Numbered from the stretch's first letter, positions 38,312 to 59,733 are shown. The stretch: 64,000 nucleotides of DNA from Bacteroidales bacterium (GCA_021740585.1 JAIOZM010000005.1:5642-69641); one strand, 5' to 3'. Numbers and translations are program-made. Notes: generated by a model not told the origin, from the letters alone.

Positions 38312-38335
38312 ACTATTCTGTTTTAGAGGGTAATT

Positions 38336-39319: not shown

Positions 39320-39398
39320 AACGGAAGCAAGATACAAAAAAGCTGGGTTTGCCTTTAGCGATTTTATTATAATTATTTTGTTTTGGGATTTTAGAAAA

Positions 39399-39480
39399 AT
39401 ACCACGAAGGCACGGATTACATGGAGAAACACGGATAAAAATCTCTGTGGCACTCTTTGTAATCCGTGCCTCCGTGGTAT
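39399..39480. repeat. Long inverted repeat (REP/MITE-like hairpin)
   Basis: ataccacgaaggcacggattaca ... tgtaatccgtgcctccgtggtat; 23-bp arms with 1 mismatch. Confidence 0.8.
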
Positions 39481-39510
39481 TCTTTATAAAGGCAGGATAG
39501 TGTACTAGCG

Positions 39511-40074
39511 CTAAAACCCCGGTTTAACATTCCCCTGCGCAAATCCCACCACCTTTTCTATCCTGTTATCCCTTGTAGTCTTTTGTTTTGCCCGGTTAAT
39601 CCAATTTATATATCTATTTCTTATGGAAATTGAGTAATTGAAAAAATTAGTACAAGCAGTTTTATCCCTATTAAGAGCCTGAAGCAATTCGTCAGGCACT
39701 GCTTCCTCTTTTTTTGAGCTGTAAGCCATTTGCCACGTTCCCGATTTTTTTCCTTCCTCCACTTTCTCTAAGCCTGCCTTTTTCATCCGGCCTTCCCCGA
39801 TCATTTTCTCTACTCTTTTAACGTTCAGAAGAGACCATACACTATTTTTCTTCCTGGGAGTATATTTTTGTCTGTAGATGTTTTCATCCACCCGATTAAT
39901 TTTGGAATCAATCCAACCAAAACACAAGGCTTCTTCAACGGCTTCATCGTATGTAACCGAGGCTTTCCCACTGTTCTTTTTGTAATAACCGAGCCAGATT
40001 TCTGTTGCAGTTTTGTGATTTATCTCAAGCCAGGCTCGCCATTCTTCCCGGTCTATGAAAAGTTGAAAGTCCAT
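39511..40074 (-). CDS. YdeI/OmpD-associated family protein
   Basis: WRAWLEINH, EIWLGYYKK, AVEEALCFGWIDS, TPRKKNSVWS and AKQKTTRDNRI; start at ATG 40074. Confidence 0.92.
   Translation of the reverse strand: MDFQLFIDREEWRAWLEINHKTATEIWLGYYKKNSGKASVTYDEAVEEALCFGWIDSKINRVDENIYRQKYTPRKKNSVWSLLNVKRVEKMIGEGRMKKAGLEKVEEGKKSGTWQMAYSSKKEEAVPDELLQALNRDKTACTNFFNYSISIRNRYINWINRAKQKTTRDNRIEKVVGFAQGNVKPGF
39989..40074. repeat. 86-bp direct repeat, left copy (5' end of the ydeI-like gene)
   Basis: Identical by eye to 54785-54870 (ccgagccagatttctg...gaaagtccat). Confidence 0.92.
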
Positions 40075-40257
40075 TGCTGTTATTTTTATTGCAAGATACA
40101 AAAAAGGGGCAAAGTTGGATTTCAACAGCATATTTTCTGTTATAATTGGGAATGTCATTTACAGTGGTTCATGGTTTTTTTTGCTCAGAAGTTTTCAAAA
40201 TAACATCTATTGACTTGTATTTCAGTATTTTGTATATTTGATATAGAATATTGAAAA

Positions 40258-43200
40258 ATGCTTATGGTCTACCAAAAAGCACCATTGTTTTCTCTCTGGA
40301 GTTGCCTTAATAAGGCAGGGTGTTTGAGCGCTTTTCTGCTTCTGTTCTGTTTCCAAAATTCTTTCCCTCAGTATCCAGAAAAACTTTATGGTCCGGAAGA
40401 GGGCCTTAGCCACTCCACTGTACTTGACATAAATCGGGATGAAAATGGGTTTATTTGGGTCTTTACCTTGAAAGGACTTTGCCGGTTCGATGGGTATCAT
40501 TTTAAGGAGTATAAAGTTCTGAATAAAGACCTTGTAACAGATATAAAAGGAATGGGATGCTTTATTAAAGATTCAAAAAACCGTTTATGGATTAGAAGTA
40601 GCCCAAATTTATTGAGCGTTTATAATTCTGAAAAGGACAAAATAGAGACTTTGAGTGATAGTGTCGACTATTATGTTTCATTTGGAGAATATAATACTGA
40701 TATATGGGCCATTGGTATTAATTCTATTATAAATTTTCAAGAATCTGAAGCCTTTTATTTTACATCAACGAATTATTCATTACCTGAAGAAACAGGTATT
40801 ATATATAGAATTTTACCACAGGTTGATGGCAGTCTTATCACAATTACCGAAAACGGTCTGTTTATATTAAAGCCCTTTGAGAATAATTTTCAGGTACAAA
40901 AACTCACTTCTTTGGTAAATGGATTACCCAATATTCATATAGATATTTCTTCAAAGTTTATTGAAATTAATCAAATTCTATATCTGACGAATGCAAGAGG
41001 TATTTATAAAACTAATATCCATTTAAATCATTCTGCTTTTGCCGATTCCGTCGTTTATCTTGATTTAATTACTATGGATTTCCCTGAGCTTGGCATCGAC
41101 CCAGAACAACCTATATATGCTGTGGTTGAAGGAGAAAAAAATGAAATATTTATTCGCTCATTGAATGGCATTTACAAGTACAATTTTTTTAATGACAATA
41201 TGAAAAGAATAAAAGAAGAGTATTATGGAATTTCAGATATGGGAGAAGGAGAATTCAGATTTGCCCTTATGTATGATTCTGATAAAATACTTTGGGCTGG
41301 GACAGATAAAGGATTATTAAAAATTGTAACTCCAAACAAGGACTTCCAGGTTATTTTGCCGGAACCTGAAAATCCAAAAGGCCTGAAATTTGGGAAGCTA
41401 AACCAGGCAATGATTGACTCAAACGGAGACCTTTGGATTGGAACGGTTGGTGACGGGTTGTATCATTCAGTCCCCGATAAAAACAATGAATTTGTTGAAT
41501 TTGAAAATTTTAAACCTGATGGTAGTAATCAAAAAGCTCTAAACTCAACCACAATATCGGTCCTAACTGAAGATTCTAAACAAAATCTTTGGATAGGAGC
41601 AATAGATTTACAAAGTATTGGATTGAACGAAAAGACTATGATTTTCAAGAATACTCCTATAACAGATTATGTAAGGTTGCTATCTAAGCCTTTATTTCCC
41701 TCAAGCATTATTGAAGATCCTGAAGGCAACATCATTTGTATAGGTACTCCGGGTGAACTGTCAAACTGGCAATATAGACCTGATGTGGGGAAAGGATACT
41801 ATTTATATCTCGATTCAACAAAAAAACTCATTAATTGTCCAAGATTTTATCACACAAGGGACGATCAATTCTACATGTATGCGAACAAAAGCTTTTTTAA
41901 ACTAACGAATGGATGGACCTTTAAAGAGGTGGATTATATTCTGGGAAAAGAAGATTTGAAATTTAAAGAAAAAATTAATCTTAAAACTTTATTACCCTAT
42001 GCTTATCCTTCTAAAATAGATACTTTATTACGTTTCGATGAAAATAAAATAGAATTTGCAAGGTTCATCATTACTGAGAAAAGTCAGGAAATTGAATTAT
42101 GGATTAATTTCATGTATGAAAAAAAGATTTTAAGATATAGTATTAAACAACTTCTGACACAAAATGCCAATTTTAGTAATCCTGACTGGGCAAATATGGA
42201 GACTGATGAAAGTCCTCAAGGAATTAATCTTGGGGTTGTCTATGAAATGATTGAGGATAACAGTGGCAGGGTATGGTGCTCAACACAGGATGGACTGATT
42301 TCAATAAATCCCGAAACCAATCATGCATTCACATATTACATTGAAGATGGCCTTCCAACAAATAAACTATTCTGGGGAATTTCAAAAGACAACATAGGAA
42401 GAATTTTCGTATGCACGACCAATGGTCTGCTATTTTTTAATCCAGACAGTATTTCACCCGATCCTCCAGCTATGGTTAAATTAACTGAGCTTTTCCTTTT
42501 TAATGAATTAGTTGAAGTTGATGAAAATTCCATTCTAACCAGAAATATTTCTGAAACAAAGAGTTTACAGTTAAGCCATAATCAAAATTATTTAGGTTTT
42601 AAGTTTTCAGCCTTGGAATACAGGAATACAGAAAGAGTAAAGTACAGGTATAAGCTGGAAGGTGTAGATAAAGATTGGATTGAGCAGGGAAAAAGACTTC
42701 AGGCTGATTACTACAATCTGGATCCGGGAAAGTATACTTTTCATGTCATTGCGGCCAACGGGAACAATGTATGGAATAGTGAAGGAGTTTCCCTTTCTAT
42801 CCGTATCCTTTCCCCACTCTGGTTCCGATGGTGGGCTATTGTTATTGAAGCTTTGGGTCTGATTTTCATTCTCATATTTTATATAAGGTACAGGGAAAGA
42901 GAGCTGCAACAAAGGGCCATTTTACTGGAAGAAAAAGTGGATGAAAAAACCCGCGAGGTACTGGAGCAGCGTAAGGAAGTGGACGAGATGAAAAGCCGGT
43001 TTTACACCAATATTTCCCATGAATTTCGTACCCCTCTCACTTTGCTTGTTGGTCCGCTGGAAGATTCGGTAAAATCGTGCGAGGAAAATGTTCCAATGAG
43101 CAGGAAAATCCTCTGTATTATGCTTCGAAATGCCCGCAGACTCCAGCGACTCATCAACCAATTGCTGGATATTTCAAAAATTGAATCCGGAACAATGGAG

Positions 43201-44571
43201 CTTCGGCTTATAAAGAACGATCTCGCAGAATTTGTCAAAGTGATAGGAGGATCCTTTTTATCCCTTGCTGAATCACAAAAAATTAAATACCGGGTGCAGG
43301 TGGATATAAAGGATAGAGAGCTTTGTTTTGATCCCGATAAACTGGAAAAAGTAGTCACAAACCTCCTTTCCAATGCCTTTAAGTTTACTCCCCGGGAAGG
43401 AGAGGTTATGCTTTCACTGGAAATGCAAAATGGAAGCATGAAAGCTGAAGTGCTTGAGGCGGTTCTGACGGTATCTGATACTGGCAGGGGAATACCGAAG
43501 GACCAGATTGATCATATCTTCGATCGTTTTTTCCAGGTATCGGATTCTGATACCCGGGATGTGGAGGGCTCAGGGATCGGACTTGCCCTTTCAAAGGAGT
43601 TGGTGGAGTTAATGCATGGCAGCATTGAGGTGGAAAGCAATCCGGGGGAGGGTTCAAAATTCATCGTAAAATTCCCGGTTTCGGAACATTGTTTTACAGA
43701 GCAGGAACTGGCTGATCTTGAATCGGGTGTGAAGATAAGAGAGGAATGGGATGAAGAGGATGAAGAAAAGCTTGCAGATGTTTATGAAGAAAGCCTTGAA
43801 GAAGGTTCTGACGAAACTGGAGAAATCAGGAAAGAAATCATTCTTATCGTGGAGGACAATCCGGATCTGCGAAATTACATCAGGGACCAGTTTAACAGTG
43901 AATACCATATAATTGAAGCGCAGAACGGTCAGACCGGTTATGAAAAAGCCGTTCAGCATATCCCAGACCTTATCGTCACCGACCTGATGATGCCGGTAAT
44001 GGGAGGGATGGAGATGTGCCAGAAGGTGAAGACTCACCCGTTAACAAGCCATATCCCGGTAATTATGCTTACAGCAAAGGCAGATAAAGAAAGCAAGCTG
44101 GAAGGATTGGAGACCAATGCAGATGATTATATTATTAAGCCATTCGATGCTGAATTATTGGTAGTAAGAGCTAAGAACCTGATCAGGCAGAGAAAGGAAC
44201 TGAGGCAGCGTTTTGAAAAGACCTTCTTACTGGAAGATAATGGGAATATGGATGCAATTCCATTTAATATGCTGAAAGAAATACTTGAAGTAATTCGGGA
44301 AAATCTTTCAGATGAAGATTTTAGCGTAAATAAGCTGGGGGATGAATTGCACATGAGCAGGTCCGGGGTATTCAGAAAGATTCGCTCTGTGGCCGGTATT
44401 ACTCCAATCGAACTTCTTAGGATGATAAGGATGAAAGAAGCTGCACGGCTCCTCCGTAAAAACGAACTGAATATCACCCAGATAATGTATCAGGTAGGAT
44501 TAAAGAACCCTTCCCATTTTGCACTGACTTTCAAGAAGTTTTATGGGGTGAATCCGTCGGAATACCGGTAA
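40258..44571 (+). CDS. Hybrid two-component system (beta-propeller sensor, Y_Y_Y, HisKA, HATPase, REC, AraC)
   Basis: EEGLSHSTV, LWIGT repeats, YRYKLEGVDKDW, NISHEFRTPLTL, GSGIGLAL, ILIVEDN, DLMMPVMGG and FKKFYGVNPSEYR. Confidence 0.96.
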   Translation: MLMVYQKAPLFSLWSCLNKAGCLSAFLLLFCFQNSFPQYPEKLYGPEEGLSHSTVLDINRDENGFIWVFTLKGLCRFDGYHFKEYKVLNKDLVTDIKGMGCFIKDSKNRLWIRSSPNLLSVYNSEKDKIETLSDSVDYYVSFGEYNTDIWAIGINSIINFQESEAFYFTSTNYSLPEETGIIYRILPQVDGSLITITENGLFILKPFENNFQVQKLTSLVNGLPNIHIDISSKFIEINQILYLTNARGIYKTNIHLNHSAFADSVVYLDLITMDFPELGIDPEQPIYAVVEGEKNEIFIRSLNGIYKYNFFNDNMKRIKEEYYGISDMGEGEFRFALMYDSDKILWAGTDKGLLKIVTPNKDFQVILPEPENPKGLKFGKLNQAMIDSNGDLWIGTVGDGLYHSVPDKNNEFVEFENFKPDGSNQKALNSTTISVLTEDSKQNLWIGAIDLQSIGLNEKTMIFKNTPITDYVRLLSKPLFPSSIIEDPEGNIICIGTPGELSNWQYRPDVGKGYYLYLDSTKKLINCPRFYHTRDDQFYMYANKSFFKLTNGWTFKEVDYILGKEDLKFKEKINLKTLLPYAYPSKIDTLLRFDENKIEFARFIITEKSQEIELWINFMYEKKILRYSIKQLLTQNANFSNPDWANMETDESPQGINLGVVYEMIEDNSGRVWCSTQDGLISINPETNHAFTYYIEDGLPTNKLFWGISKDNIGRIFVCTTNGLLFFNPDSISPDPPAMVKLTELFLFNELVEVDENSILTRNISETKSLQLSHNQNYLGFKFSALEYRNTERVKYRYKLEGVDKDWIEQGKRLQADYYNLDPGKYTFHVIAANGNNVWNSEGVSLSIRILSPLWFRWWAIVIEALGLIFILIFYIRYRERELQQRAILLEEKVDEKTREVLEQRKEVDEMKSRFYTNISHEFRTPLTLLVGPLEDSVKSCEENVPMSRKILCIMLRNARRLQRLINQLLDISKIESGTMELRLIKNDLAEFVKVIGGSFLSLAESQKIKYRVQVDIKDRELCFDPDKLEKVVTNLLSNAFKFTPREGEVMLSLEMQNGSMKAEVLEAVLTVSDTGRGIPKDQIDHIFDRFFQVSDSDTRDVEGSGIGLALSKELVELMHGSIEVESNPGEGSKFIVKFPVSEHCFTEQELADLESGVKIREEWDEEDEEKLADVYEESLEEGSDETGEIRKEIILIVEDNPDLRNYIRDQFNSEYHIIEAQNGQTGYEKAVQHIPDLIVTDLMMPVMGGMEMCQKVKTHPLTSHIPVIMLTAKADKESKLEGLETNADDYIIKPFDAELLVVRAKNLIRQRKELRQRFEKTFLLEDNGNMDAIPFNMLKEILEVIRENLSDEDFSVNKLGDELHMSRSGVFRKIRSVAGITPIELLRMIRMKEAARLLRKNELNITQIMYQVGLKNPSHFALTFKKFYGVNPSEYR

Positions 44572-44580
44572 AGAGATAGT

Positions 44581-44628
44581 GTGGTGGTGTGGTAGTATGC
44601 TGGTGTGCTAGTATGCTGGGCTGCTAAT
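44581..44628 (+). repeat. Six-unit degenerate 8-mer tandem repeat
   Basis: gtggtggt gtggtagt atgctggt gtgctagt atgctggg ctgctaat, directly after the HTCS stop. Confidence 0.75.
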
Positions 44629-44654
44629 GAGTCGAAATACCAGCCTAAAACTAA

Positions 44655-44963
44655 TCAGATCACTATACTTTCTTTAATAATCTCATTAATAAAATCATCC
44701 TTTTCAATATAATATTTAGTTGAATAAGGATGTGTTTCAATTACCGGATACTTGATGTTAATTTTTGAGTAAAGCTTCAAATTATCAAAAATATTATCAC
44801 TGAATTGATCAGAAATTAGTAGTAAATCTATATCAGACCATTCATGTGTCTTATCTTTTGCTGCGGAGCCAAATAGTAGTACTTTGTAAAATGTTAATCC
44901 GCTGGAATTGCATTCATTTACAAATGCTCTGGCAGTTTTTATTGCAGATTCTCTAGTAACCAT
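44655..44963 (-). CDS. Minimal nucleotidyltransferase (MNT) antitoxin-like protein
   Basis: LFGSAAKD..WSDIDLL (GS-x10-DxD); 102 aa; overlaps the HEPN gene. Confidence 0.9.
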   Translation of the reverse strand: MVTRESAIKTARAFVNECNSSGLTFYKVLLFGSAAKDKTHEWSDIDLLLISDQFSDNIFDNLKLYSKINIKYPVIETHPYSTKYYIEKDDFINEIIKESIVI

Positions 44964-45334
44964 ATTTTTAACTCATTTGTTGTTTCCAACATTGATTTTG
45001 TAAATTCTTCGTTACAGATATCGTTCAATTTTGTTGAATAATCAGGATACCTTCCTTCTAATTGAAATCTATTTAAGCTAAGTAAAAATTCACTTTTTTC
45101 ATCTGTCAATTCAATCGATGTTGTCGAAAGTAAAAAAATCAGATTATGTGTCCTTGGAGGAAAATTCTCTTTATTATGTTTTATCCAAATTGCCTTACAA
45201 ACTTTTTCAATTACCAGATGAGCAAAAAATAATGCATGCAAGTATTTCTTTCCTGAAAACAATGTGTCAACAGCAGACCAATCATCTTCTGCTTGCTGAA
45301 TCCAGAAATCTATATGTTCTTGTTTTGTTTTCAT
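44939..45334 (-). CDS. HEPN domain protein
   Basis: WIQQAEDDW, LFFAHLVIEKVCKA, PPRTHNL and EGRYPD. Confidence 0.9.
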   Translation of the reverse strand: MKTKQEHIDFWIQQAEDDWSAVDTLFSGKKYLHALFFAHLVIEKVCKAIWIKHNKENFPPRTHNLIFLLSTTSIELTDEKSEFLLSLNRFQLEGRYPDYSTKLNDICNEEFTKSMLETTNELKIWLLENLQ

Positions 45335-45544
45335 TAATTCAAAGATAATCTTTTTTTTTCCGGAGATGAAATCTTTATGAAATGTTTTAAGAGTATTTTG
45401 CCTACCTTATTATCGTCAGTAAGTGCTAAAAAAGTTGATGTATTGGATGAAAACCATAAAATACCTACCAGACGATTCTATATTTCCCTCATCGGCTTAA
45501 CCTCCTTCTCTCTACTCAAAAACTCTCAACTTTAAACTTCCTCC

Positions 45545-45610
45545 TGACACAATACCGTTCAATTTTGACACAATACCGTTCGACATTGGTTTTTGCAGGG
45601 CGTAATTTTA
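45545..45610 (+). promoter_or_regulatory. Putative HTCS (AraC) operator: 16-bp direct repeat with 21-bp period, plus a -7-like element
   Basis: TGACACAATACCGTTC at 45545 and 45566, followed by GTAATTTTA, upstream of the S41 gene. Confidence 0.8.
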
Positions 45611-45666
45611 GATAAGTTTTTCCCTGATCTTAAAATTGAATTTTTATAAAACTAAAATTTCCAGCT

Positions 45667-48120
45667 ATGAGAAAGATTCTTTGCCTCAATATTTTTCTTT
45701 GCTTTCTCCCAATTCTCTCTGCTCAGGATCTACCTGATAATCTTCAAATAGGAAAGCACACAGTTGCCGAGTGGAAATATATTGTAGACACTATATGGGG
45801 AGATGGAATGCCAACAGAAGACAAACTCATTCTCTTCGACAACTTCTGGGATGCTGTTGATAAATACTATCCAGGATTTGTAAACAATCCTGTTAACTGG
45901 GATTCTGTAAGGACCCACTACCGGCCTGAAATTGAAGCGGGTGTAAGTCATGGAAGATTTACAGGAATTATGTATAAAATGGGCGATATTCTGAAAGAAG
46001 TACACAGCTTAGTTTCTAATGACGAAGTTTTTATGACTCAACCGGGTCCGGGAGTGCCTTTACTATTAGTATCCTTGCAAGAAAATCCGGATTCTGTTGT
46101 ATTGTTTGATAATGGTTGGTTTGGCGCTGTAATAACCCCGGTCAATGAAAATGAATTACTGGTTTTGAGGGCTGTACCGGACCATCCTCTGGGCCTGGAA
46201 GCAGGGGATATTATCCTGGGATATGATGGAATGGCATGGAAAGATCTCTTTCCCTTATTGCGGGCAATGGATTTTCCTTTGGTAAACTTTTATGGAAGTT
46301 CAGATGAAAGTGTAAGGCTCCTATTGCTGGCATCTGTAGGATTAAACTGGCATTTTTTTGACACACTTGATTTTCAGAAATATGGGTCTGCAGATACGCT
46401 GCATATGCCAACATCCCTGCTGGAAGGGAAAGAAATGTATATCCCGGGGAACGAACAGATTCCCCTTGAAGGAATAGCATTTCCCGGTTCAATCAGGGAT
46501 GAGGATTATCCCGAGTTGTTCTATCTCACCCCTATCATTTATGATACTTTATTCGATAATTCCATTGGTTATATTTATTACACTCATATGCCTAAAGGCG
46601 TTGAGTCCACATTGTTTGATGCAACAACAAAGCTTTCAGGCGCTGATATTAACGGACTTATTCTCGATTTAAGATTTAACATCGGGGGATGGATGGGTTG
46701 GGAAACAGGTTTTAATCCGATTTTCAACCAAACCATAGATTCCTGCGCATATTATTCAAGAGCCTATGGAGGTGGGTATAGTGACCTGGTGGCTGTTCAA
46801 AGTAATGTATTTAAAACACTTAGTAAGGACTTTATAAATAAACCGATTGCACTGCTTACAGGCCCCGAAGCCGTTAGCAACGGAGATTATGCTTCTTATT
46901 TTATCCATACCCAGCCAATGACCAGGAGTTTTGGAAGATTTACCAATACAGGATATACACATTATTCTCCTTCTTTAACTCCAAATACACCAACCACTTT
47001 TAATAATGCATCCATTTTATGGGATTTTGGATATGAAGACTGGCATATCCAGATTGCTCCCCGAAATTTTGGACGTTTTATTGACGGAGAGCTTATATAT
47101 TTTATCCATAATCCATTTGAAATTGATGAAGAGATCTGGTATACGCAGGATGCTATACACCAGCAAAAAGACAATATGGTTGAAAGAGCAGTTGAATGGA
47201 TTAATTCCGTTGCCTATGCCGATATTTGCAGGCTGTCAGATACATACCTTGATACAGATAAGACAGATCCATTATACATTCATTCTGGAGTTATTAATCC
47301 AAAAAATCATTCCGTTGAATTAAGTGCAAAGCTGTTTAATAAATCAGGGATATATCTCCAGGATGTTAGCATGCAGGAGAATACTACAGGAGATATCCCT
47401 GATTTGCAAACCCGGGAATGGTATGGTAACTTTAGTATGGACAATGATGGCTTTTATTTTGCTGAAGTTTCAACCAGGGATCTTGATGAAGATTCTTTCC
47501 TGACTTATCCCGGTTACCTTCATTTTACGACAGTCAGAAAACCTGATATATTCCCCAGGACTTTCAATCTTCAAAAAGGTTCAGAACAAAGCATCAGCCT
47601 TACAGTTATGAATACTTCTGAAACCGATCTGGAGAAGCCTTATTTAATGCTTTCATCAAAAGATTCCCTGGTGGATATCAAGTACCCTAAAATAGACCTT
47701 GGAACAAAAATACTTGCTGGAAGAGGCAGGGTAAAGTCACTGGTTTTTACAATTGATTATTCCGCGGAAGTGAATTCGGAATTCTGGATTGATTTGGACA
47801 TTTATGCAGATGGTGTTCACTACTGGAATGACAGTATCCAGTTAAGCGAGGCAACAGATGCTGAAACTTACTTTAATGACTCAAATCCCGAACTAAGAAT
47901 ATATCCTAATCCCATGTCGGAATACTGCATGATTCAGCTGAGCGGACCTGTTGCTATAGAAAAAATCGAGGTGTTTGATCTTTCAGGCAGAAAGGTATTC
48001 CAGGAAAATTCCCTGGGAACTAATTCGTACCGGCTCGAAAAAGGAGATCTCAGGAAAGGAATGTATGTTGTGAGAATTACTGCAGATAGTGTATACGATA
48101 GAAAGCTGGTGGTGAAGTAG
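45667..48120 (+). CDS. S41 family peptidase with PDZ-like region and T9SS CTD
   Basis: Signal peptide, VNWDSVRTHY, GLEAGDIIL, IGYIY, GLILDLRFNIGG, LLTGPEAVSNGD and RIYPNP CTD. Confidence 0.85.
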   Translation: MRKILCLNIFLCFLPILSAQDLPDNLQIGKHTVAEWKYIVDTIWGDGMPTEDKLILFDNFWDAVDKYYPGFVNNPVNWDSVRTHYRPEIEAGVSHGRFTGIMYKMGDILKEVHSLVSNDEVFMTQPGPGVPLLLVSLQENPDSVVLFDNGWFGAVITPVNENELLVLRAVPDHPLGLEAGDIILGYDGMAWKDLFPLLRAMDFPLVNFYGSSDESVRLLLLASVGLNWHFFDTLDFQKYGSADTLHMPTSLLEGKEMYIPGNEQIPLEGIAFPGSIRDEDYPELFYLTPIIYDTLFDNSIGYIYYTHMPKGVESTLFDATTKLSGADINGLILDLRFNIGGWMGWETGFNPIFNQTIDSCAYYSRAYGGGYSDLVAVQSNVFKTLSKDFINKPIALLTGPEAVSNGDYASYFIHTQPMTRSFGRFTNTGYTHYSPSLTPNTPTTFNNASILWDFGYEDWHIQIAPRNFGRFIDGELIYFIHNPFEIDEEIWYTQDAIHQQKDNMVERAVEWINSVAYADICRLSDTYLDTDKTDPLYIHSGVINPKNHSVELSAKLFNKSGIYLQDVSMQENTTGDIPDLQTREWYGNFSMDNDGFYFAEVSTRDLDEDSFLTYPGYLHFTTVRKPDIFPRTFNLQKGSEQSISLTVMNTSETDLEKPYLMLSSKDSLVDIKYPKIDLGTKILAGRGRVKSLVFTIDYSAEVNSEFWIDLDIYADGVHYWNDSIQLSEATDAETYFNDSNPELRIYPNPMSEYCMIQLSGPVAIEKIEVFDLSGRKVFQENSLGTNSYRLEKGDLRKGMYVVRITADSVYDRKLVVK

Positions 48121-48293
48121 TGCTGACGGGCTGAATTGCTTTTCGATTTTGCAACTCTTATATGCCTCAATGGGGTAGAATCAGATTTTGAACCCGGAAA
48201 GAGTAAAAGTAATCCGGATGGAGCGATTGGATAGAGACTTTTTAAAAAAGTGTGTCAAAGTGATTATTAAAAACTAAACTAAATATCCCTGAC

Positions 48294-51200
48294 ATGAAAA
48301 AGAAGATTATTTTTTTTATTTTCCTGCTGATGACTTTTGTCATCCATTCACAAATCATCCACATACCCTCTGACTATCCTTCCATACAGCAAGGAATTGA
48401 TGCTTCAAGCAATGGCGATACGGTTTTGGTTGCTGAAGGAACCTATTACGAGAATATTAATTTTAAAGGCAAAGCCATTACTGTAGCGAGTTTGTTAATT
48501 ACAGACGGGTATGTTTCTCATGTCTCAAAAACCATTATTGATGGAAGTCAAGCTGTACATCCGGATACAGCTTCAGTGGTATTATTTATTTCCGGGGAGG
48601 ATTCAACCTCAGTATTAAATGGATTTAAAATAACCGGGGGAAAAGGAAGTAAGCTTGTAATGGAAGGGGTAGAAACCTTTTTTTTGGGAGGAGGAATTCT
48701 GATAGATTTTTCTGGTGGCAAAATTATTAATAATGAAATAGTCGCAAATAGCCTTTCCTCGGCAGAGTATTCTGTATTTGGGGCAGGAATATTGGGAAAT
48801 GTGGGCGAAAATTTAAACCTGATAATACGGAATAACCAGGTAAGCAATAATGTTGCAAGCAGTGAGAAACATCCCGTAGGAGGGGGAATGGAGCTTGAAT
48901 GCCGTGCTGGATATTTATTATGTGAAAACAATGTAATCAGCAAAAATGTATGCACGGGATTGGGATCATATGCTGCTCTGGGTGGCGGTATATCTGCATT
49001 TAGTATTTCGCCATGGAAGGCCGATTTTATTATTAGAAACAACAGAATATTTGAGAATGAGATCTCAGGGATATATGCAGTCGGGGCAGGTATATACAAT
49101 TATACACCCTATGACAATTCGTTTTTTATGGATGCAGTATCAAAGTATCAAATCTATAATAACCTAATTACAGGCAATATTTCGGAGCATTATGGCGGAG
49201 GTATCGCTTTATGGGGAGAACTTCAGTATGCTAATGCTGTAAATCCTGCTCCCCTGATTTATAATAATACCATTACAGGAAATAAGGCACAGTATGGTGG
49301 GGGACTATTTAATCATAACGCAAAACCACTTCTTTTCAATAATATAATATGGAATGAATCAACCTTAGCAACCGACGAAGAACTTTATAATGGTAATTAT
49401 AGTGGGACACATAAAGGAACATACATTACCCAGAACAATTTAATAAGAGAAGCCTATATGGGTGTGGGGAATATCTATTCAGACCCTTTGTTAGATTCTG
49501 AAACACTTATGCCAACTGAAGGAAGTCCTGCGGTTGGCAGAGGAATGGGATTCCATTCACTATAAAGGTACATGGTATAATGCTCCGCAATACGACTTAT
49601 CCTGGGTTATAAGGAAAGATGCCGCAGCAGATATGGAACCAGATCTCGGAGCCATAGAATCGCCCTTCAATAAATCTCTAATTACTTATGATTCTGAAAC
49701 AGTCATCAATGTCCCTGCAGAACAACCCACCATTCAAGCCGGTATCAATGCTGCCAAAGCGGGTGATACTGTCCTGGTGAATGAAGGTTATTATTATGAG
49801 AATATCAATTTCAAAGGCAAAGCGATTACGGTAGCGAGTAAGTTTATCCTCGACAGGGACGATATTCATATTGCACAGACTGTGATTGACGGGAGTATGC
49901 CTGCTCACCTTGATACTGCTTCTGTTGTATTTATTGGTGGAGGGCTGGATTCGACTACCGTTTTATCCGGTTTCACTATTACGGGTGGCAAGGGTTCTAA
50001 AAGAGTAAGGCCGACCCGAACTTTAAGAATAGGAGGTGGAATTTTTGTTGAATTGTCAGGTGCAAAAGTTGAAAATAATATCATCACAAGGAACTCTGTT
50101 ACTGATCCAAGTTTTGAAGTAAGTGGAGGAGGTATTTTTGCTGTAAATAATACAAGCAGCCAGAATTTGGTAATTCGAAATAACAGGATTTTTAATAACC
50201 ATATATCGGGAAGTACCTATACCCAGGGAGGAGGAATTTTGGTGGCTGAGCCATACGGCATGAAATTGATAGAGAACAATGATATCTTTCAGAACACCGC
50301 AACATGCATAGGGAACTATAAGGCCAATGGAGGGGGCATAAACATTGGGACATGGGAACCTTGGAATACGCCAATTATTGTCAGGAACAACAGGATATAT
50401 GAAAATGAAATTCATTGTGTTGCCAGCCAGGGAGGAGGTATATTCCTGACTTTTCCTGAATGGGGTACTGAGACGCATTCCGGGAAAGCCCCAATAGAGA
50501 TCTATAATAACCTGATCGCAAATAATTCTTCCGAAGACAGGGGTGGAGCGATTGGTATATGGGATCAGGGAAATAAGGCTTATGACATAGAGGATCCAAA
50601 TCCGCTGATCTATAACAATACCATTATTGGCAATACTGCAAAGGAAGGAGGTGGAATTTTTAACTTTGAAATGAATGCCCTGTTGATGAATAATATTATG
50701 ATAAACAATGGATCTGTTGCATCGGCCCGCGAGATCAGCCTGAGAGACATAAATTATATTTACGGGTATTTTGCCAATCAGGGAAGATTTCAATCCTATA
50801 ACAATGATATACGTGGAGGCTTGGCAGGAGCCGGGAATATAGATAAAGATCCGAAAACCGACGCTTATGATTTTAGTCTCAAGGACATTAGTCCCTGTAT
50901 TGGCCGGGGCATCGATTCGGTACATATAAATGGAAACTGGTATTATGCTCCTGCTTACGATCTGAAAGGAGTGAACCGCTTAATGGCTTCTGCAGACGGA
51001 GAAATCGATATGGGAGCGCTGGAATCCACGTTTGAAAGATTGAATCCCGCATACGATTCGGAACACATTATCAATGTTCCCGAAGAAGAGTACACCATAC
51101 AGGCGGCCATAAATGCTGCCGCCGAAAGCGATACGGTACTTGTTGCTCCGGGATTGTATTACGAGAATATCAATTTCAAAGGAAAGGCGATTACTGTGAT

Positions 51201-52686
51201 GAGTCATTATGGGATGGATAAGGATGTAGATCATCAGACGAATACGGTTATTGATGGGAGTATGCCTGCTATTTCTAAAAAAGCTTCCGTAGTGACATTT
51301 AATTCGGGAGAGGATACAACATCTATTCTAAAAGGCTTTACTATAAGGGGTGGGGTGGGTTCTGAAGTTGAACCATTTCCTGGAGTAATTGCAAAAGGAG
51401 GAGGAGGAATAATGATGTTTTCTTCCGGGGGCAAGATTGAAAACAATATCATTAAAGAAAACAAAGTTGAATCTGCCACCATGGAGGTAGCCGGAGGAGG
51501 AATTGTTTATGGGGAACGAGGTAATAATGTGATCATCAGAAATAATAAAATTCTGAACAACGAGATCAAATCTCCGTGGACTATGGGTGCGGGAATTCGC
51601 GTCAGCAGCGACAAAGGCTATATCCTTATTGAAGGGAATGAGATTAACAATAATATTAATACCTGCACGTCATGGTTTAAGGCAATGGGAGGAGGACTAC
51701 TTGTTCAGAAAGCCTATGGGACAGATGTAAAGATTGTTGTTAACAAAAATTATATTCACCACAATGAACTTCATTGTCAAAGTACCGTGGGTGGAGGTAT
51801 CTATAATGTATTCTACAGGGATGCGGCAAAGGAGAATTTAGAAACGAACATACCGGTAGAATACACAAATAATATTATTTCAGAGAATTATTCTGAAGAT
51901 CAGGGAGGCGGTATTGCAATATGGAATATGGCAAATTATTATGGTCTGAAGCAAACTGTCCCTGATCCAATTTTAATAAATAATACAATCATTAATAACC
52001 GGTCTGCCAATGGGGCAGGAATCTTCAATTATGATGCTGAGACATTACTAATGAATAATATCCTTTGGGATGATCTGTCAGCAAATAACTGCAAAGAGAT
52101 ATTTAATGAAGATGTGAATTATCCGGGGGGATGGGCGAAAAATGAAAATGTTGGAATCCTTCACTCCTTTCACAATGATATTCGCGATGGATGGGAAGGA
52201 GGTGAAAATGAAACAGTTGCAGATCCCCTCTGTAAACTGACCACTTTTGCACTGGAAAGCGGAAGTCCCTGCATCGGAACAGGAACAACCATGGTTGAGG
52301 TAAATGGAACAAGCTATTACGCCCCTGTAACAGATTATAACGGAAATCCACGACCAAATTCAAACAATAATTTGGTCGATATAGGTGCCATTGAATCCAT
52401 GATGACAGGATTTAGGCAAACTGTGATTGACAGTAACCCACTCCGGATTTATCCCAATCCCGCAAGCGATTTAACGACCATCAGCTTTAACCTGCAACAG
52501 AAAACCAATGTAAGGCTGAGCATCTTCAACCTTCTCGGACAAGAAGAAATGATATTGCTGAATGAAGAAATGCTTCCCGGCGCTCAGGAAGTGAGCTTTA
52601 ATGTAGCTGAATTAACGAAAGGTTTGTATATAGTTAAACTATTAACTGACAGGAATACAAGTGCTAAGCTTATAGTAAAAGAGTAG
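48294..52686 (+). pseudogene. Triple-repeat right-handed beta-helix T9SS protein split by a +1 frameshift (ORFs 48294-49565 and 49534-52686)
   Basis: Three TIQ..I.AA..GDTVLV..G.YYENINFKGKAITV units. Removing one G at 49547-49549 gives GRGMDSIHYKGTWY, collinear with GRGIDSVHINGNWY in repeat 2, and one 1463-aa ORF from signal peptide to CTD. Confidence 0.85.
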
Positions 52687-52741
52687 TTTAGTATTTGTTG
52701 TTTTTCTTTCCTTTTTTCTTTTTAGTTTTTAGTGGAATAGG

Positions 52742-52767
52742 GGCCACGGAGATTCGTCTCTGTGGCC
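52742..52767. terminator. Hairpin with TTCG loop between convergent genes
   Basis: ggccacggaga-ttcg-tctctgtggcc followed by tttgttt. Confidence 0.6.
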
Positions 52768-52870
52768 TTTGTTTAAGGATAAAAATTGCCTTGTCGCGGT
52801 GCACACCGGTATTTTGTATTGTCCAATTAATCGTCCAGGTACCAGTACTTATGTTTGATTCAAATAAAAT

Positions 52871-54010
52871 TCAGCAAAGAAATTCCAGAAAATTATCTTT
52901 ATCTATTAGCTTAAATTCAGAATCGGGATAAGTAGTTAACCATAGTTTAGGAGCTTTTTGTTTTCCGGAGCTCCATTTGAATTCATAAGCAAAAATATTT
53001 CCATCCCGCTCCTCAATCAAATCAATTTCTTTTTGATCGTAAGTACGCCAGAAAAATTCATTTGCATATATTTTTTTATAGTGCCTTGTTTTAAGCCTTT
53101 CAGAAAAGAGAAAATTTTCCCAGAGAAGGCCTTTATCATTACGCATGTTAAGCGGATTGAAATTGTTGATAATAGAATTCCTCACTCCGTTATCCCAGAA
53201 ATAATATCGATGTGTTTTCGTGATTTCTTTCCTCAGATTTCTTGAAAAGCCCTGTGATTTTTTAATAATGAATACTTTTTCGAGCAAATCAAGGTACCTT
53301 TCCACCGTTTGCTTTGCGATGCCCAATTGTTTACTTAATTCATTAAGAGATACTTCATTGCCTATCTGATAGGCCAGAAGTCGTAACAAATCAAAAAGCT
53401 TAGATGGATTTCTGATATTATCCAATTCCAATATATCTTTAAGCAAAAAGGAGTTTCGAAGATTTATCAGGTAATCTATTCTTTTTTTATTGTTCTCAGC
53501 CGTAACAACTTCAGGATAGTTTCCATAAATCAACATGGTATCCAGCCGATTCAATATTTCCAATCTTCCATACTGATTTTCCAATTCAAGAATGGAAAGA
53601 GGGTATAATGTGTTGACAGTCTGCCGACCGGTAAGCGGTTCACCTATCTTATTTGACAGATCGAATGAGGAAGAACCACTTAAAATTACCATAGAACCAG
53701 GAAGGTGATCGACAATAAGTTTTATGGCTTCACCGATATTTCTGATCTTTTGAGCCTCATCTATAAATATTAAGCTGTAATTGTCTAAGGCACTCTTTAT
53801 TAGGGATAATCTTAGGGAATTTAACAGCTCCTGAAGATCAAAATCGTTTCCATCACCTTTAAAAACATTCTCCCGTTCGCTGATCATTTTCTTTATCAGA
53901 GAAGTCTTACCGACCTGCCTTGCACCTAGCAATACCATTACTTTTCCCTCCTGAAGCATACTTGCAAAAAGGGACTCATAATACCTCCGGATCCAGTTCA
54001 GATTATTCAT
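52871..54010 (-). CDS. AAA_14 ATPase with C-terminal DUF4143 (PD-(D/E)xK-like) domain
   Basis: Walker A GARQVGKTS, Walker B IFIDEAQ, SGSSS, EPLTGR, YFWDNGVRN and FWRTYDQKEIDLI..AYEFKW; start at ATG 54010. Confidence 0.92.
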   Translation of the reverse strand: MNNLNWIRRYYESLFASMLQEGKVMVLLGARQVGKTSLIKKMISERENVFKGDGNDFDLQELLNSLRLSLIKSALDNYSLIFIDEAQKIRNIGEAIKLIVDHLPGSMVILSGSSSFDLSNKIGEPLTGRQTVNTLYPLSILELENQYGRLEILNRLDTMLIYGNYPEVVTAENNKKRIDYLINLRNSFLLKDILELDNIRNPSKLFDLLRLLAYQIGNEVSLNELSKQLGIAKQTVERYLDLLEKVFIIKKSQGFSRNLRKEITKTHRYYFWDNGVRNSIINNFNPLNMRNDKGLLWENFLFSERLKTRHYKKIYANEFFWRTYDQKEIDLIEERDGNIFAYEFKWSSGKQKAPKLWLTTYPDSEFKLIDKDNFLEFLC

Positions 54011-54223
54011 AATTCTAAATATAGACAACAAACTTAACAAATTAATATAAATATAGCAAGTATATGGGCCAAATAAAACATTGTAATTATTCAGGCATAA
54101 TCCTACAGGGTGGGGATGGAATTCATGTGCCAGCTTTTTTCTGAATAATCGAAATATATAGCATCTGAAAAATCCACAAGAATTTTTCCATTCTGTAATA
54201 CTCCCCACCCGCAAACTTCCCTA

Positions 54224-54290
54224 TGACACAATTACGTTCAATTTTGACACAATACCGTTCGACATTGGTTAGGATAGCTGGTAATTTTAT
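54224..54290 (+). promoter_or_regulatory. Second copy of the HTCS operator/promoter
   Basis: TGACACAATTACGTTC (54224) and TGACACAATACCGTTC (54245), then GACATTGGTT-N10-GTAATTTTA; same spacing as 45545-45610. Confidence 0.8.
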
Positions 54291-54303
54291 CCAAAATATC
54301 ACT

Positions 54304-54509
54304 ATCAGCTTTAACCTGCAACAGAAAACCAATGTAAGGTGAGCATCTACAACCCTCTCGGACAAGAAGAAAGGGTATTACTTAATGAAGAAATGCTTCC
54401 CGGCGCACAGGAAGTGAGCTTTAATGTAGCTGAATTAACGAAAGGTTTGTATATAGTTAAAATACTAACTGACAGGAATACAAGTGCTAAGCTTATAGTA
54501 AAAGAGTAG
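54304..54509 (+). pseudogene. Orphan T9SS CTD remnant, copy of 52480-52686
   Basis: 9 substitutions and 1 deletion over ~206 nt vs the beta-helix gene 3' end; similarity continues ~35 nt past the stop. Confidence 0.9.
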
Positions 54510-54581
54510 TTTAGTATTTGTGGTTTTTCTTTTCTTTTTTCTTTGTAACTGGTTCAGCACTGGGGTTATTGGGGCATCTTA

Positions 54582-54745
54582 TTCCACGGGTTAATCCCGA
54601 TAGCCATCTGGACCGCGGCTAATCAATTGTTACCACTCCGTGGTAAATATCCACACCATTCTTTGGGCCTTCGGCCCTTCGGCAAGCTCAGGGATCTCAG
54701 GCTCAGGGACCTCAGGCTCAGGAACCTCACACCATCCTTCGGCAT
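54582..54745. repeat. Cluster of REP-like elements
   Basis: ccacggg..tcccgatagccatctgga..ccgcggctaatc..ccactccgtgg; cccttcggcaagctcagg plus three 15-mer units gctcaggRaYctcaS. Confidence 0.7.
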
Positions 54746-54870
54746 AAGATACAGAAATTTTTCCGCTAGGTATTTTTATAGTAGCCGAGCCAGATTTCTG
54801 TTGCAGTTTTGTGATTTATCTCAAGCCAGGCTCGCCATTCTTCCCGGTCTATGAAAAGTTGAAAGTCCAT
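54737..54870 (-). pseudogene. Truncated, frameshifted ydeI-like 5' fragment (contains the right 86-bp repeat, 54785-54870)
   Basis: Reads MDFQLFIDREEWRAWLEINHKTATEIWLGYYKNT*. After removing one A it continues IPSGKISVSYAEG, vs KNSGKASVTYDEA in the intact gene. Confidence 0.88.
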
Positions 54871-54923
54871 AAATGCTTTTTTATAATGCAAAATACAAAA
54901 AAGTATTTATTTCGTCGTTATAC

Positions 54924-55787
54924 TTAAAAACCTTTCCCAATCCGAATATTAAAAGAAGGCAAAACATCATATTGGGATCCAATATTTGAATACCAATCCA
55001 TCATAGGACCTACATCTAGTGTAAACCTTATATTTTTATTGTTGATATAATCCAGTCCGAATGGGAAGTAAGTTTGCCACGATTCTCCTATAAATACAAA
55101 AGCAAAATAGTTATGGCTTACTCCTGTATGGAAGTTTATGCTGTTCTTTTTAAGCTTTAAAGGATAAATTTTTGTACCTAATCCTGCGCTTATAATTCCA
55201 AGTCCGGCCTCCACACCTATATAATTATTTAAAATACGTTCATATGTAAAACCGGCAACAGGGGTGGTTGCGCCAATGGAAAGAGAAACATAATTCTTTT
55301 TCTCAAGTTCTAAGCTTTTGTCCTCAGATCCGAATTCCTGTCCAAAGCGATATCCGATCTTCCCGCCAAACCAAGGTGAGGGCATGGGCTCAATGGCTTC
55401 TGAATACATGATGCCGGCATCGAAGCTATACTGAAAATTATTTTTTGACACATAAGATATTCCGAGTGGCAAATAAAACATGGCGTTCGGAGTATCATAA
55501 TAAATCATAAAATTGGGTTGGGTATAGTAGTTAAATCTTCGGGTACCTGGATCAGATAAGTAATATCGAACTCCAAGTCCACCGGAAAATATGCCGGCAC
55601 CAACCTCAAGAGAAATTCTTTGGGTAATCATTTGATCGAGGGATAAACCTACCGGCCATTGGGGTGCACCCAATAGTCCTATTGAAATACCGTTTGTTTT
55701 ATACGACAGGCTGCTGCTTTGGTCAGGCTGGGCATTTGATTTTAGAGCAATAATGATGAGCAGAGCAAATAATGAAATGTTTTTCAT
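54924..55787 (-). CDS. Putative outer-membrane protein with two tandem beta-barrel-like repeats
   Basis: Signal peptide; ISLEVGAGIFSGGLGVRYY vs IGVEAGLGIISAGLGTKIY; halves end KIGYRF and RIGKGF. Confidence 0.7.
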   Translation of the reverse strand: MKNISLFALLIIIALKSNAQPDQSSSLSYKTNGISIGLLGAPQWPVGLSLDQMITQRISLEVGAGIFSGGLGVRYYLSDPGTRRFNYYTQPNFMIYYDTPNAMFYLPLGISYVSKNNFQYSFDAGIMYSEAIEPMPSPWFGGKIGYRFGQEFGSEDKSLELEKKNYVSLSIGATTPVAGFTYERILNNYIGVEAGLGIISAGLGTKIYPLKLKKNSINFHTGVSHNYFAFVFIGESWQTYFPFGLDYINNKNIRFTLDVGPMMDWYSNIGSQYDVLPSFNIRIGKGF

Positions 55788-56186
55788 GTTTTTTTTTGAT
55801 TTAAAGATTTGCCCAGGGATTTGATTTTTCAAATGGCTACAAAGCAATCGGATGTTAAAACGCACAGTCTTACAATAAGTTCATTTTATTTAAAGATTAA
55901 CTAATTAGAACTATAAGGGGGGGATATATGTGTTTACAGATTAAAGCTTATTGAATGTTTTTCAATTTAAAGAGTATATGTACGATAAACTTCCTTTTTT
56001 AGGTCAGTCATCTTTTTGTTTGATCTAAGAATTTAGTAGTCAGAAAAATATAATTACTCTAAATTTTGAACTAATTGCATCATCTACGGTTATTATGAAT
56101 GATAGTGTCGAAATAGTTATTATTCAGACAGCTAACTGAGCATAGTTTGTTCAGGTATTTATTATTAAATTAAAAAAACAACAATT

Positions 56187-59657: not shown

Positions 59658-59660
59658 AAG

Positions 59661-59733
59661 AGCCTCTCATGGGACTCGAACCCACGACCTGCTCATTACG
59701 AATGAGCTGCTCTGCCAGCTGAGCTAAAGAGGC
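59661..59733 (-). tRNA. tRNA-Thr (anticodon CGT), CCA not encoded
   Basis: GCCTCTTTAGCTCAGCTGGCAGAGCA GCTCA-TTCGTAA-TGAGC AGGTCGTGGGTTCGAGTCCCATGAGAGGCT folds into a 73-nt cloverleaf. Confidence 0.97.

Follow-up and report, generated by a model that had tools for sequence, protein, structure and literature searches.

The locus considered here lies in a 64,000-nt window on contig C59 of a 4.23-Mb MAG of a representative of the Bacteroidales. A block of genes (40075–54784) is enclosed there by an intact ydeI gene on the left and a fragment of a ydeI gene (ydeI′) on the right. The following features are located at the locus, with positions counted from the first nucleotide of the window.

39390–39490, no strand assigned: inverted-repeat REP element 3′ of ydeI, with 41-nt arms that are 80% complementary; its family differs from that of the right-hand REP
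39511–40074, minus: intact gene of the ydeI/OmdA family, left copy, an open frame for 187 aa (PF13376, E = 4.9e-12)
39989–40074, no strand assigned: left copy of the 86-bp perfect repeat, corresponding to ydeI codons 1–28 plus 2 nt (86/86, non-extendable)
40075–40106, no strand assigned: left upstream homology with the shared promoter-like motif TGCAAnATACAAAAAAG, identical to 54871–54903 at 25/33 positions
40258–44571, plus: hybrid two-component system regulator (HTCS) with Reg_prop/Y_Y_Y, HisKA, HATPase_c, Response_reg and HTH_AraC (Pfam)
44655–44963, minus: MNT-type nucleotidyltransferase, putative antitoxin (PF01909 and PF18765)
44939–45334, minus: HEPN-domain protein, putative toxin (PF05168, E = 1.8e-17)
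45534–45610, plus: D4, an operator/promoter-like element located 5′ of the S41 gene, with a pair of GACACAATACCGTTC boxes at a spacing of 21 bp
45667–48120, plus: S41-family peptidase with a T9SS C-terminal sorting domain (PF03572 and PF18962)
48294–49565, plus: gene X, 423 aa, no Pfam match, sharing a repeat module of about 1.35 kb with the beta-helix gene
49534–52686, plus: right-handed beta-helix protein with a T9SS C-terminal sorting domain (PF13229 and PF18962)
52477–52724, plus: CTD-coding end of the beta-helix gene and 38 bp downstream, left copy of a 248-bp repeat
52871–54010, minus: AAA_14/DUF4143 ATPase, 379 aa (Pfam; start refined)
54213–54289, plus: D4′, relic of the operator/promoter element (77 bp at 83%, rising to 91% in the first 58 bp)
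54301–54547, plus: CTD′, relic of a T9SS C-terminal domain with a 1-bp deletion (94% over 248 columns)
54651–54744, no strand assigned: dispersed REP unit and the first 17 nt or so of a second unit, abutting ydeI′ (unit boundaries by alignment)
54737–54870, minus: ydeI′, relic of 33 codons, a +1 frameshift and about 12 more codons, followed by REP
54785–54870, no strand assigned: right copy of the 86-bp perfect repeat (by identity to the left copy)
54871–54903, no strand assigned: right-hand counterpart of the upstream homology; it carries the shared promoter-like motif and lies 20 bp from the stop codon of the OMP gene
54924–55787, minus: gene for a putative outer-membrane beta-barrel protein (OMP), 287 aa, with a signal-peptide-like N-terminus and no Pfam match

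The genes proposed by the sequence-only reading of this DNA were recovered with Pfam, which confirmed HTCS, HEPN, MNT, S41 with CTD, beta-helix with CTD and AAA_14/DUF4143. Seven Pfam families were matched in the expected order within the single HTCS protein. The HEPN and MNT genes are co-oriented, overlap by 25 nt and are assigned by Pfam to a HEPN–MNT pair, a putative toxin–antitoxin (TA) system. The T9SS sorting domain PF18962 was found at residues 745–816 of the S41 peptidase and 972–1048 of the beta-helix protein, and T9SS cargo genes with PF18962 also occupy both flanks of the block. The same reading had noted the absence of a recombinase, which agrees with the result that no recombinase or transposase family in Pfam was hit by any of the 42 ORFs in the window that reach 110 aa.

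HTCS-controlled polysaccharide and protein utilisation loci are known in Bacteroidota. Similar to these, an AraC-type hybrid regulator adjoins genes of secreted hydrolase-like proteins, and paired direct-repeat boxes are located upstream of the first cargo gene; unlike them, the locus has no SusC/SusD pair, and the cargo carries T9SS sorting domains. Paired GACACAATACCGTTC sites occur only three times in the genome, and the HTCS is putatively linked to these boxes as regulator to operator. On contig C100, a large ORF is divergently oriented to the D4-like site; it was rejected as an HTCS candidate, since it encodes a BspA-type LRR T9SS cargo protein.

The left ydeI consists of 187 open codons, and its PF13376 score of 46.1 bits against a cut-off of 25.6 places it in the YdeI/OmdA family. 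The right copy reads MDFQ...GYYKNT*, then, after a +1 shift, IPSGKISVSYAEG, and then passes into the beginning of a REP unit; it ends at about codon 45, and the OmdA domain is absent. This bears out the contrast drawn earlier between an intact left gene and a right copy truncated at a REP cluster. The fragment is an old pseudogene rather than a fresh product; it combines the frameshift and the truncation at the REP unit with differences at 18 of the 48 positions on the body side. The REP unit itself (54651–54736) is a dispersed repeat of REP type, with copies at 86–91% identity on at least 15 other contigs and a match of 41 nt at 98% in the congener G001. Partial copies of the left REP (39390–39490) were found on contigs C75, C125, C11, C111, C139 and C22.

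The two copies of the repeat (39989–40074 and 54785–54870), 14,796 bp apart in window coordinates, are identical at 86/86 positions, with a mismatch at the very next base on each side. The core is found in the genome at these two places only, both on C59. It is embedded in a longer gapped homology (39942–40106 against 54737–54903; 167 columns, 84% identity), in which identity outside the core is 30/48 on the body side and 25/33 on the upstream side. The 86-bp core thus records a recent sequence exchange, because the aligned flanks are identical at just 55/81 positions (68%). The chance of a run of 86 matches at 68% identity is about 3e-15 per start position, and synonymous differences number three in the first three codons beyond the core and zero in its 28 codons. 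The upstream motif TGCAA(G/A)ATACAAAAAAG is common to both copies, upstream homology ends after 32–33 bp in both, and the perfect tract is bounded exactly at the ATG of ydeI. The identical direct repeat, the decay of homology on both sides of it and the arithmetic of excision (a loss of 14,796 bp by crossover in the core, with a single intact ydeI remaining) all hold as the sequence-only reading had given them.

Two further pairs of direct repeats, which that reading had missed, also have their right-hand copies at the right border: 45534–45610 with 54213–54289 (77 bp, 83%; first 58 bp, 91%) and 52477–52724 with 54301–54547 (248 bp, 94%). CTD′ is frameshifted and is joined 11 bp after D4′. The spacing between D4 and D4′ is 8,679 bp, and D4′ would sit exactly at the start of a second tandem copy. 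All three right-hand fragments, D4′, CTD′ and ydeI′, are relics, and D4′ and CTD′ are non-functional. A scan of 52400–56000 for sigma-70 promoters and terminators gave no more sites than shuffled sequence.

The closest comparison genomes belong to other species, at about 80% amino acid identity (84% for Ldh_2), and carry little information on recent events. Synteny with the congener G001 is represented by three genes (76–84% amino acid identity) and ends between Ldh_2 and ydeI; the best ydeI homolog of this genome (38%) is encoded on a different contig. The label ‘OMP’ is a reading of the sequence alone and does not come from any tool. No full-length relative of the OMP protein was found in 60 relatives, where two weak partial matches were obtained; among metagenome contigs, from which records of the genome itself may have been excluded, none of 237 pattern matches was confirmed by tblastn. 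A DUF6268 protein of the congener was rejected as an OMP homolog, with no detectable homology. ydeI and OMP, both absent from the syntenic locus of the congener, are therefore not conserved flanks. The sole other gene shared by the G001 contig and C59, encoding a 132-aa PDDEXK_3 protein (74% identity), was rejected as a right synteny anchor, because this family is often multi-copy and is thus unreliable for the purpose.

Genes of the block have no orthologs in two congeners, where the ATPase was not found, the best HTCS match (40%) covers the C-terminal half only and S41 is matched in the CTD only. The HTCS, gene X and the beta-helix gene are syntenic on a chromosome contig of another genus (G111:C254), with amino acid identities of 47%, 70% and 63%, and the ATPase is 81% identical to proteins of G014 and G028, encoded in a different context. 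The block interior is a mosaic of modules with separate phyletic patterns. A GTDB-wide scan returned 581 relatives of ydeI, of which the best full-length homolog has 55% identity, and none is close enough to be an allele of the locus. Among 109 ydeI loci, no window ORF (at least 100 aa, start at 36–60 kb) recurs as a neighbour, apart from a DUF4143 ATPase, present at two of them, and fragments resembling an HTCS, present at a few, both cyanobacterial and other.

The composition of the block is native, without the deviation expected of islands: its tetranucleotide distance corresponds to the 65th percentile of 359 genome windows, and its GC content is 0.380, against a genome mean of 0.372 (sd 0.015). 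The genome-wide recombinase search covered the family PF00589, to which four matches were found, none of them on C59. No genes for replication or transfer were found with Pfam among the block ORFs. The block has no match in plasmids and phages by megablast, and a 40-nt pattern from the core gave no matches in JGI metagenome contigs or in IMG/VR, from which records of the genome itself may have been excluded. A tRNA gene is present at neither border, the sole one in the window being located at 59660–59733.

The best reading of these data, to which about an even chance of being correct may be given, is that relics formed in situ were followed by a short gene-conversion tract; conversion, and not integration, would be the event recorded. 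The identity over 86 bp would represent a short tract of non-reciprocal homologous recombination between intact ydeI and the decayed 5′ relic of an old paralog, located 14.8 kb apart on the same chromosome. The relic lies in a graveyard of about 700 bp (54213–54903), in which D4′ is fused to CTD′ and REP elements stand between the pieces. The block would then be an ordinary species-specific chromosomal locus of an HTCS regulator with T9SS-secreted cargo, built in place by local duplication, gain of modules (HEPN–MNT, the S41 peptidase and the DUF4143 ATPase) and deletion, and the fragments may be the remains of larger duplicates after deletions. In particular, the exact positions of D4′ and CTD′ would result from tandem duplication of an 8,679-bp unit (45534–54212) and two subsequent deletions.

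Ectopic gene conversion with a gene and its paralogous pseudogene as partners belongs to general bacterial genetics, and a patch of identity within old divergence is the usual signature of a conversion tract. The locus resembles such cases in its short perfect tract, sharp edges, older divergence around the tract, direct orientation and location on one replicon. A reciprocal crossover between partners diverged by about 32% would leave products that differ throughout and are not identical over 86 bp; the perfect core would need a conversion-type event under any model and therefore should not be taken as the footprint of integration. RecA-type recombination between the direct repeats could delete 14,796 bp within the core, keeping one intact ydeI; the block is therefore deletion-prone, which is not a demonstration of movement.

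Some features of the locus sit less easily with formation in place. The order D4′–CTD′–ydeI′ is not expected from a single tandem duplication of the whole block, and several events must be assumed because of this misfit. The divergence of the relics is unequal (6% for CTD′, 17% for D4′ and 32% for the flanks of ydeI′), which requires different ages or more conversion. It would be a strange coincidence for a random conversion boundary to fall exactly at the ATG, where the tract ends. A TA-containing block between direct repeats is also the exact layout of a Campbell-type insertion.

The latter was the origin proposed in the sequence-only reading: a 14.7-kb circle with a truncated ydeI homolog, carrying the HTCS, HEPN–MNT, T9SS cargo genes and the ATPase, would have been inserted into the chromosomal ydeI through one crossover mediated by the host and could leave in the same manner. 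Its geometry, gene content and arithmetic stand; integration of a circle received no positive support, is the less economical reading and is considered unlikely. The repeats are correctly oriented, with one product intact and the other truncated, the putative TA pair lies inside the block, a recombinase is lacking, and the block genes are without orthologs in two congeners. A precedent is the microcin H47 island of Escherichia coli (PMC5426353), a 13-kb island with no recombinase gene, bounded by direct repeats that are extensive and imperfect, with islands of identity in them; PCR demonstrated its excision between them, its circular form and its re-integration, which are RecA-independent. The layout of this type, imperfect direct repeats at both ends (167 columns, 84%) and no recombinase of its own, was found here as well. 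Both blocks are small (13 and 14.8 kb), recombinase-less and removable by recombination between repeats; unlike H47, with its circle shown by PCR, the present block is known from the sequence of one assembly, its repeat is the 5′ end of a gene and the relic of that end, and its cargo is a regulator with secreted enzymes. Direct repeats around an accessory block with a putative TA pair inside are shared also with integrase-dependent islands and integrative elements, whereas an integrase, a border tRNA and compositional deviation are missing here, and the repeats are a coding 5′ end, not a short att core. Against a circle stand, further, the perfect core in 68% flanks, which demands a conversion step in addition to the crossover; the native composition; the lack of the core 40-mer in JGI metagenome contigs and IMG/VR and of block matches in plasmids and phages; the non-conservation of ydeI and OMP, the supposed chromosomal flanks; the lack of replication or transfer genes; and the separate histories of the modules, with HTCS–X–beta-helix being chromosomal in another genus. 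The D4′ and CTD′ relics would be left unexplained. Conversion and integration yield the same final sequence and are inseparable from one assembly. The stronger proposal, a TA-stabilised HTCS/T9SS cassette without a recombinase, which, like the H47 island, would cycle as a circle through host recombination at the 5′ end of ydeI, is doubtful and distinctly improbable.

A variant of formation in place, differing in the source of the paralog, takes ydeI′ as the start of the collapsed second copy of a tandem duplication of about 14.8 kb, most of which was deleted, with the junction between REP and ydeI codon 46 or so. The relic does start within ydeI exactly at the boundary of a REP unit, as a duplication junction would, upstream homology stops at 32–33 bp in both copies, and tandem duplication with deletion would explain D4′ and CTD′ too; this is nevertheless rather unlikely, since 32% flank divergence implies great age while tandem duplications usually collapse fast, and copy 2 must have lost everything past 33 bp upstream of ydeI. 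An assembly artefact, either a chimeric contig joined at the 86-bp core or at REP, or a mixture of strains, with the consequence that no actual genome would have the two copies at a distance of 14.8 kb, is suggested by the 139 contigs and 2.65% contamination of the MAG and by the position of the right copy next to a REP with many near-copies in the genome. It is judged very unlikely: REP copies are about 88–91% alike over 70–87 bp, a poor ground for a false join, the two repeat copies lie on one 81-kb contig, each within distinct flanks that are not repeated, and the right border is connected with the block interior through its relics CTD′ and D4′. Of the sequencing runs compared for sampled words of 37500–47400, a range that includes the left junction, two contain them in full or nearly so (100% and 98%), one contains 7% and one none; both of the former are possibly source runs, so that this is weak support. 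Finally, selection on a shared nucleotide-level function, such as that of a leader or small peptide, or of a promoter-proximal element that would also drive transcription in the direction of the ATPase gene, may have kept the core identical. The perfect tract begins exactly at the ATG, the relic retains the promoter-like motif and a frame of 33 codons with its start codon, and it is co-oriented with the ATPase gene, the start of which is 727 bp downstream of the last homologous base of the relic; however, identity of 86 nt at 100%, every synonymous site included, is rarely held by selection, an Rfam scan of 36000–60000 detected nothing except one tRNA, and no other copy exists in the genome or the scanned collections, which makes this explanation highly improbable.

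If the relics formed in place, the locus would show, though not as a new principle, that a direct repeat enclosing accessory genes does not alone point to a mobile element. The repeat described here predicts a specific deletion of 14,796 bp. If the island reading were true, recombinase-less mobility, documented for a small island of E. coli, would extend to a different phylum and a different cargo. If the cycling cassette were real, the relic zone would be a scar left by its repeated entries and exits, and Bacteroidota could swap modules of a regulator and secreted enzymes without a dedicated mobility gene. If the relics formed in situ and were touched by gene conversion, as is preferred here, the locus would be a clear example of the remodelling of a T9SS-cargo region in environmental Bacteroidota by local duplication, gain of modules, REP-associated truncation and short gene-conversion tracts.

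The sequence 39989-40074 is identical to 54785-54870 over all 86 bp, as the sequence-only reading had reported, and the match cannot be extended by a single base on either side. The copies are spaced 14,796 bp apart and are the only two in the genome of the source MAG (4.23 Mb, 139 contigs, completeness 92.5%, contamination 2.65%). Gapped alignment widens the homology to 39942-40106 versus 54737-54903 (167 columns, 84%), with an identity outside the core of 30/48 on the gene-body side and 25/33 on the upstream side, in sum 55/81, or 68%. At 68% identity, 86 consecutive matches would be expected with a probability of about 3e-15 at any given start position; the three codons that follow the core already show three synonymous differences, versus none in its 28 codons. 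The repeat is real and far beyond chance, and an identical core within diverged flanks therefore indicates recent sequence exchange between two old copies of ydeI:

39511-40074, minus strand: intact 187-codon gene with a PF13376 (OmdA/YdeI) match, the repeat being its 5' end
54737-54870, minus strand: ydeI relic

The relic comprises 33 codons up to a stop and, after a +1 shift, about 12 more codons, reading IPSGKISVSYAEG versus KNSGKASVTYDEA in the left gene; it then passes into the start of a REP unit. Judged by the frameshift, the truncation and the many substitutions, it is old. Copies of the REP at 54651-54736 are present on at least 15 other contigs of the MAG, with 86–91% identity. Two distinct REP-like families were observed: a CTCAGG-rich unit of ~80 nt at 54651-54744, with a 41-nt match (98%) in the congener G001, and an inverted repeat with 41-nt arms at 39390-39490, of which six other contigs have partial copies.

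Pfam searches bore out the gene content previously proposed for the block between the ydeI copies (HTCS, HEPN-MNT, S41, beta-helix and AAA/DUF4143), which is represented by:

HTCS regulator
HEPN-MNT pair, genes overlapping
S41 peptidase with T9SS sorting domain
gene X, 423 aa, without Pfam match
beta-helix protein with T9SS sorting domain
52871-54010: AAA_14/DUF4143 ATPase, start placed at 54010

Recombinase and transposase families gave no Pfam matches among the window's 42 ORFs with a length of 110 aa or more, in agreement with the sequence-only reading; of the genome's four PF00589 matches, none lies on this contig. A periodic repeat of ~1.35 kb (72% over 110 nt) at 48382-48491, 49730-49839 and 51095-51204 links gene X with two modules inside the beta-helix gene, both genes being built from one repeated module. 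The sole tRNA of the window, tRNA-Thr (CGT) at 59660-59733 on the minus strand, lies between genes for GH9 and Pel9A-like T9SS cargo proteins, at neither border of the block.

Two further direct-repeat pairs, absent from the earlier reading, have right-hand copies crowded beside the ydeI relic. The region 52477-52724, which covers the final 210 bp of the beta-helix gene and 38 bp downstream, recurs at 54301-54547 (94%), where a 1-bp deletion breaks the frame of the sorting-domain relic. A 77-bp element at 45534-45610, upstream of the S41 gene, recurs at 54213-54289 (83%; first 58 bp, 91%). The right border (54213-54903) consists, in order, of the relic of this putative operator, 11 bp, the sorting-domain relic, REPs and the ydeI relic. 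None of the three fragments is functional; each is a copy of a sequence located at most 15 kb to its left.

The 77-bp element contains two GACACAATACCGTTC boxes 21 bp apart. Only three convincing paired-box sites were found in the genome, each preceding a T9SS cargo gene or its relic:

45546-45581: upstream of the S41 gene
54225-54260: relic copy of the element
contig C100, about 52620-52665 (locus L156, 6620-6665), minus strand: upstream of an LRR T9SS cargo gene

At all three, the GACACAATACCGTTC-like boxes are followed by GTAAyTT. A fourth pair, on contig C57, has four mismatches per box and was taken as chance. In G083:C51, a contig from another genus, a homolog of the C100 LRR gene (46% aa) directly follows an HTCS homolog of 47% identity. 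This makes the element a plausible operator of the window's HTCS, and the sites together with the G083 arrangement suggest a small HTCS regulon. On the same contig (L146, 2909-8149), HEPN-MNT genes (37% and 44% aa) directly precede the HTCS homolog and so lie on the other side of it than in the window; the toxin–antitoxin pair and such regulators recur as neighbours.

The modules of the block differ in distribution, according to a DNA search across 91 genomes of the family, the source MAG included. The ATPase gene matches genes in two genomes of another genus, G014 (L147, contig C15, 8997-10133) and G028 (L148, contig C118, 291-1427), at 74–75% in DNA and 81% in protein; these sit between orthologs of genes of contig C122 of the source MAG, and the ATPase gene was not found in two congeners at E <= 1e-60. 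It looks as if it had been relocated as a gene-sized unit. Its DNA homology ends at most about 55 bp from the gene ends, and six more paralogs (23–45%) are encoded in the MAG. HEPN-MNT has DNA matches of 75–78% in three other genomes. In G111:C254 (L144, 1593-6089), from another genus, homologs of HTCS (47%), gene X (70%) and the beta-helix start (63% aa) are adjacent, the HTCS-to-X interval being without HEPN-MNT and S41 genes; this contig starts near the HTCS start, so that no upstream neighbour is visible. The tetranucleotide profile of the block is at the 65th percentile of 359 equal-size genome windows, its GC content is 0.380 versus a mean of 0.372 (sd 0.015), and megablast of its 14.7 kb against plasmids and phages gave no match. 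The heart of the block is thus a chromosomal locus typical of the family, with other modules added to it. A 40-nt pattern from the repeat had no match in IMG/VR or JGI metagenome contigs.

Both flanks are filled with PF18962 T9SS cargo (GH5, CotH-like, GH9 and Pel9A-like proteins). In the congener G001, synteny at 76–84% aa covers Ldh_2, an AP_endonuc_2 TIM barrel protein and the ORF after it; it breaks between Ldh_2 and ydeI, and in the 15.6 kb that lie upstream on the G001 contig, none of the remaining window ORFs with 100 aa or more has a match. The best ydeI homolog in G001 (38%) is on a different contig, and the best GTDB-wide has 55% identity. Across 60 relatives, the putative outer-membrane beta-barrel (OMP) gene (54924-55787, minus strand) yielded no more than two matches, both weak and partial, and metagenome contigs gave none. 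The supposed target ydeI and the right flank are therefore variable DNA too; these flank comparisons, made across species, reveal little about recent events. In GTDB as a whole, the top ydeI relatives are spread over Chlorobiota, Bacteroidota, Thermoplasmatota and Cyanobacteria. Two Bacteroidota MAG contigs (L053 and L064) share the order Aldedh–MatE–acid phosphatase–ydeI (ydeI 49–52% to that of the window), where matches in L064 were confined to the ATPase and ydeI, and the other three genes were assigned from agreement in the length and order of the ORFs. Genes for DUF4143 ATPases occupy different insertion points within this conserved row.

A reciprocal crossover between partners differing by ~32% reshuffles differences between the products and erases none. 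A perfect 86-bp core in 68% flanks therefore needs a conversion-type step under any model, and the repeat in itself is thus no footprint of integration. Because this step is required, the relic is old and two more local-paralog relics lie alongside, we favour, at about an even chance, duplication in situ, decay in place and a short gene-conversion tract. If an 8,679-bp unit (45534-54212) had been duplicated in tandem and its second copy had then suffered two deletions, the operator and sorting-domain relics would lie exactly at their present places. Against in-situ duplication stand the several events that the relic order demands, the unequal relic divergences (6%, 17% and 32%) and the edge of the perfect tract exactly at the ydeI ATG.

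The block layout, also counting against in-situ duplication, is exactly what Campbell-type insertion of a circle carrying a partial ydeI leaves, and PMC5426353 documents an E. coli precedent, in which a 13-kb island that lacks a recombinase and is flanked by imperfect repeats excises independently of RecA. The sequence-only interpretation is partly supported: its geometry and gene content hold, its Campbell origin gained no support, and a recombinase-less island is rather unlikely. A collapsed 14.8-kb tandem duplication is likewise quite unlikely. An assembly artefact is very improbable. The left junction stretch is present in two sequencing runs, both of which may be the source of this DNA. 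Selection on the core at the nucleotide level is the least credible explanation.

Recombination in the core would delete 14,796 bp and leave one intact ydeI, as the sequence-only arithmetic had it, under the right-hand promoter-like motif. The block is a further instance of known genome plasticity.
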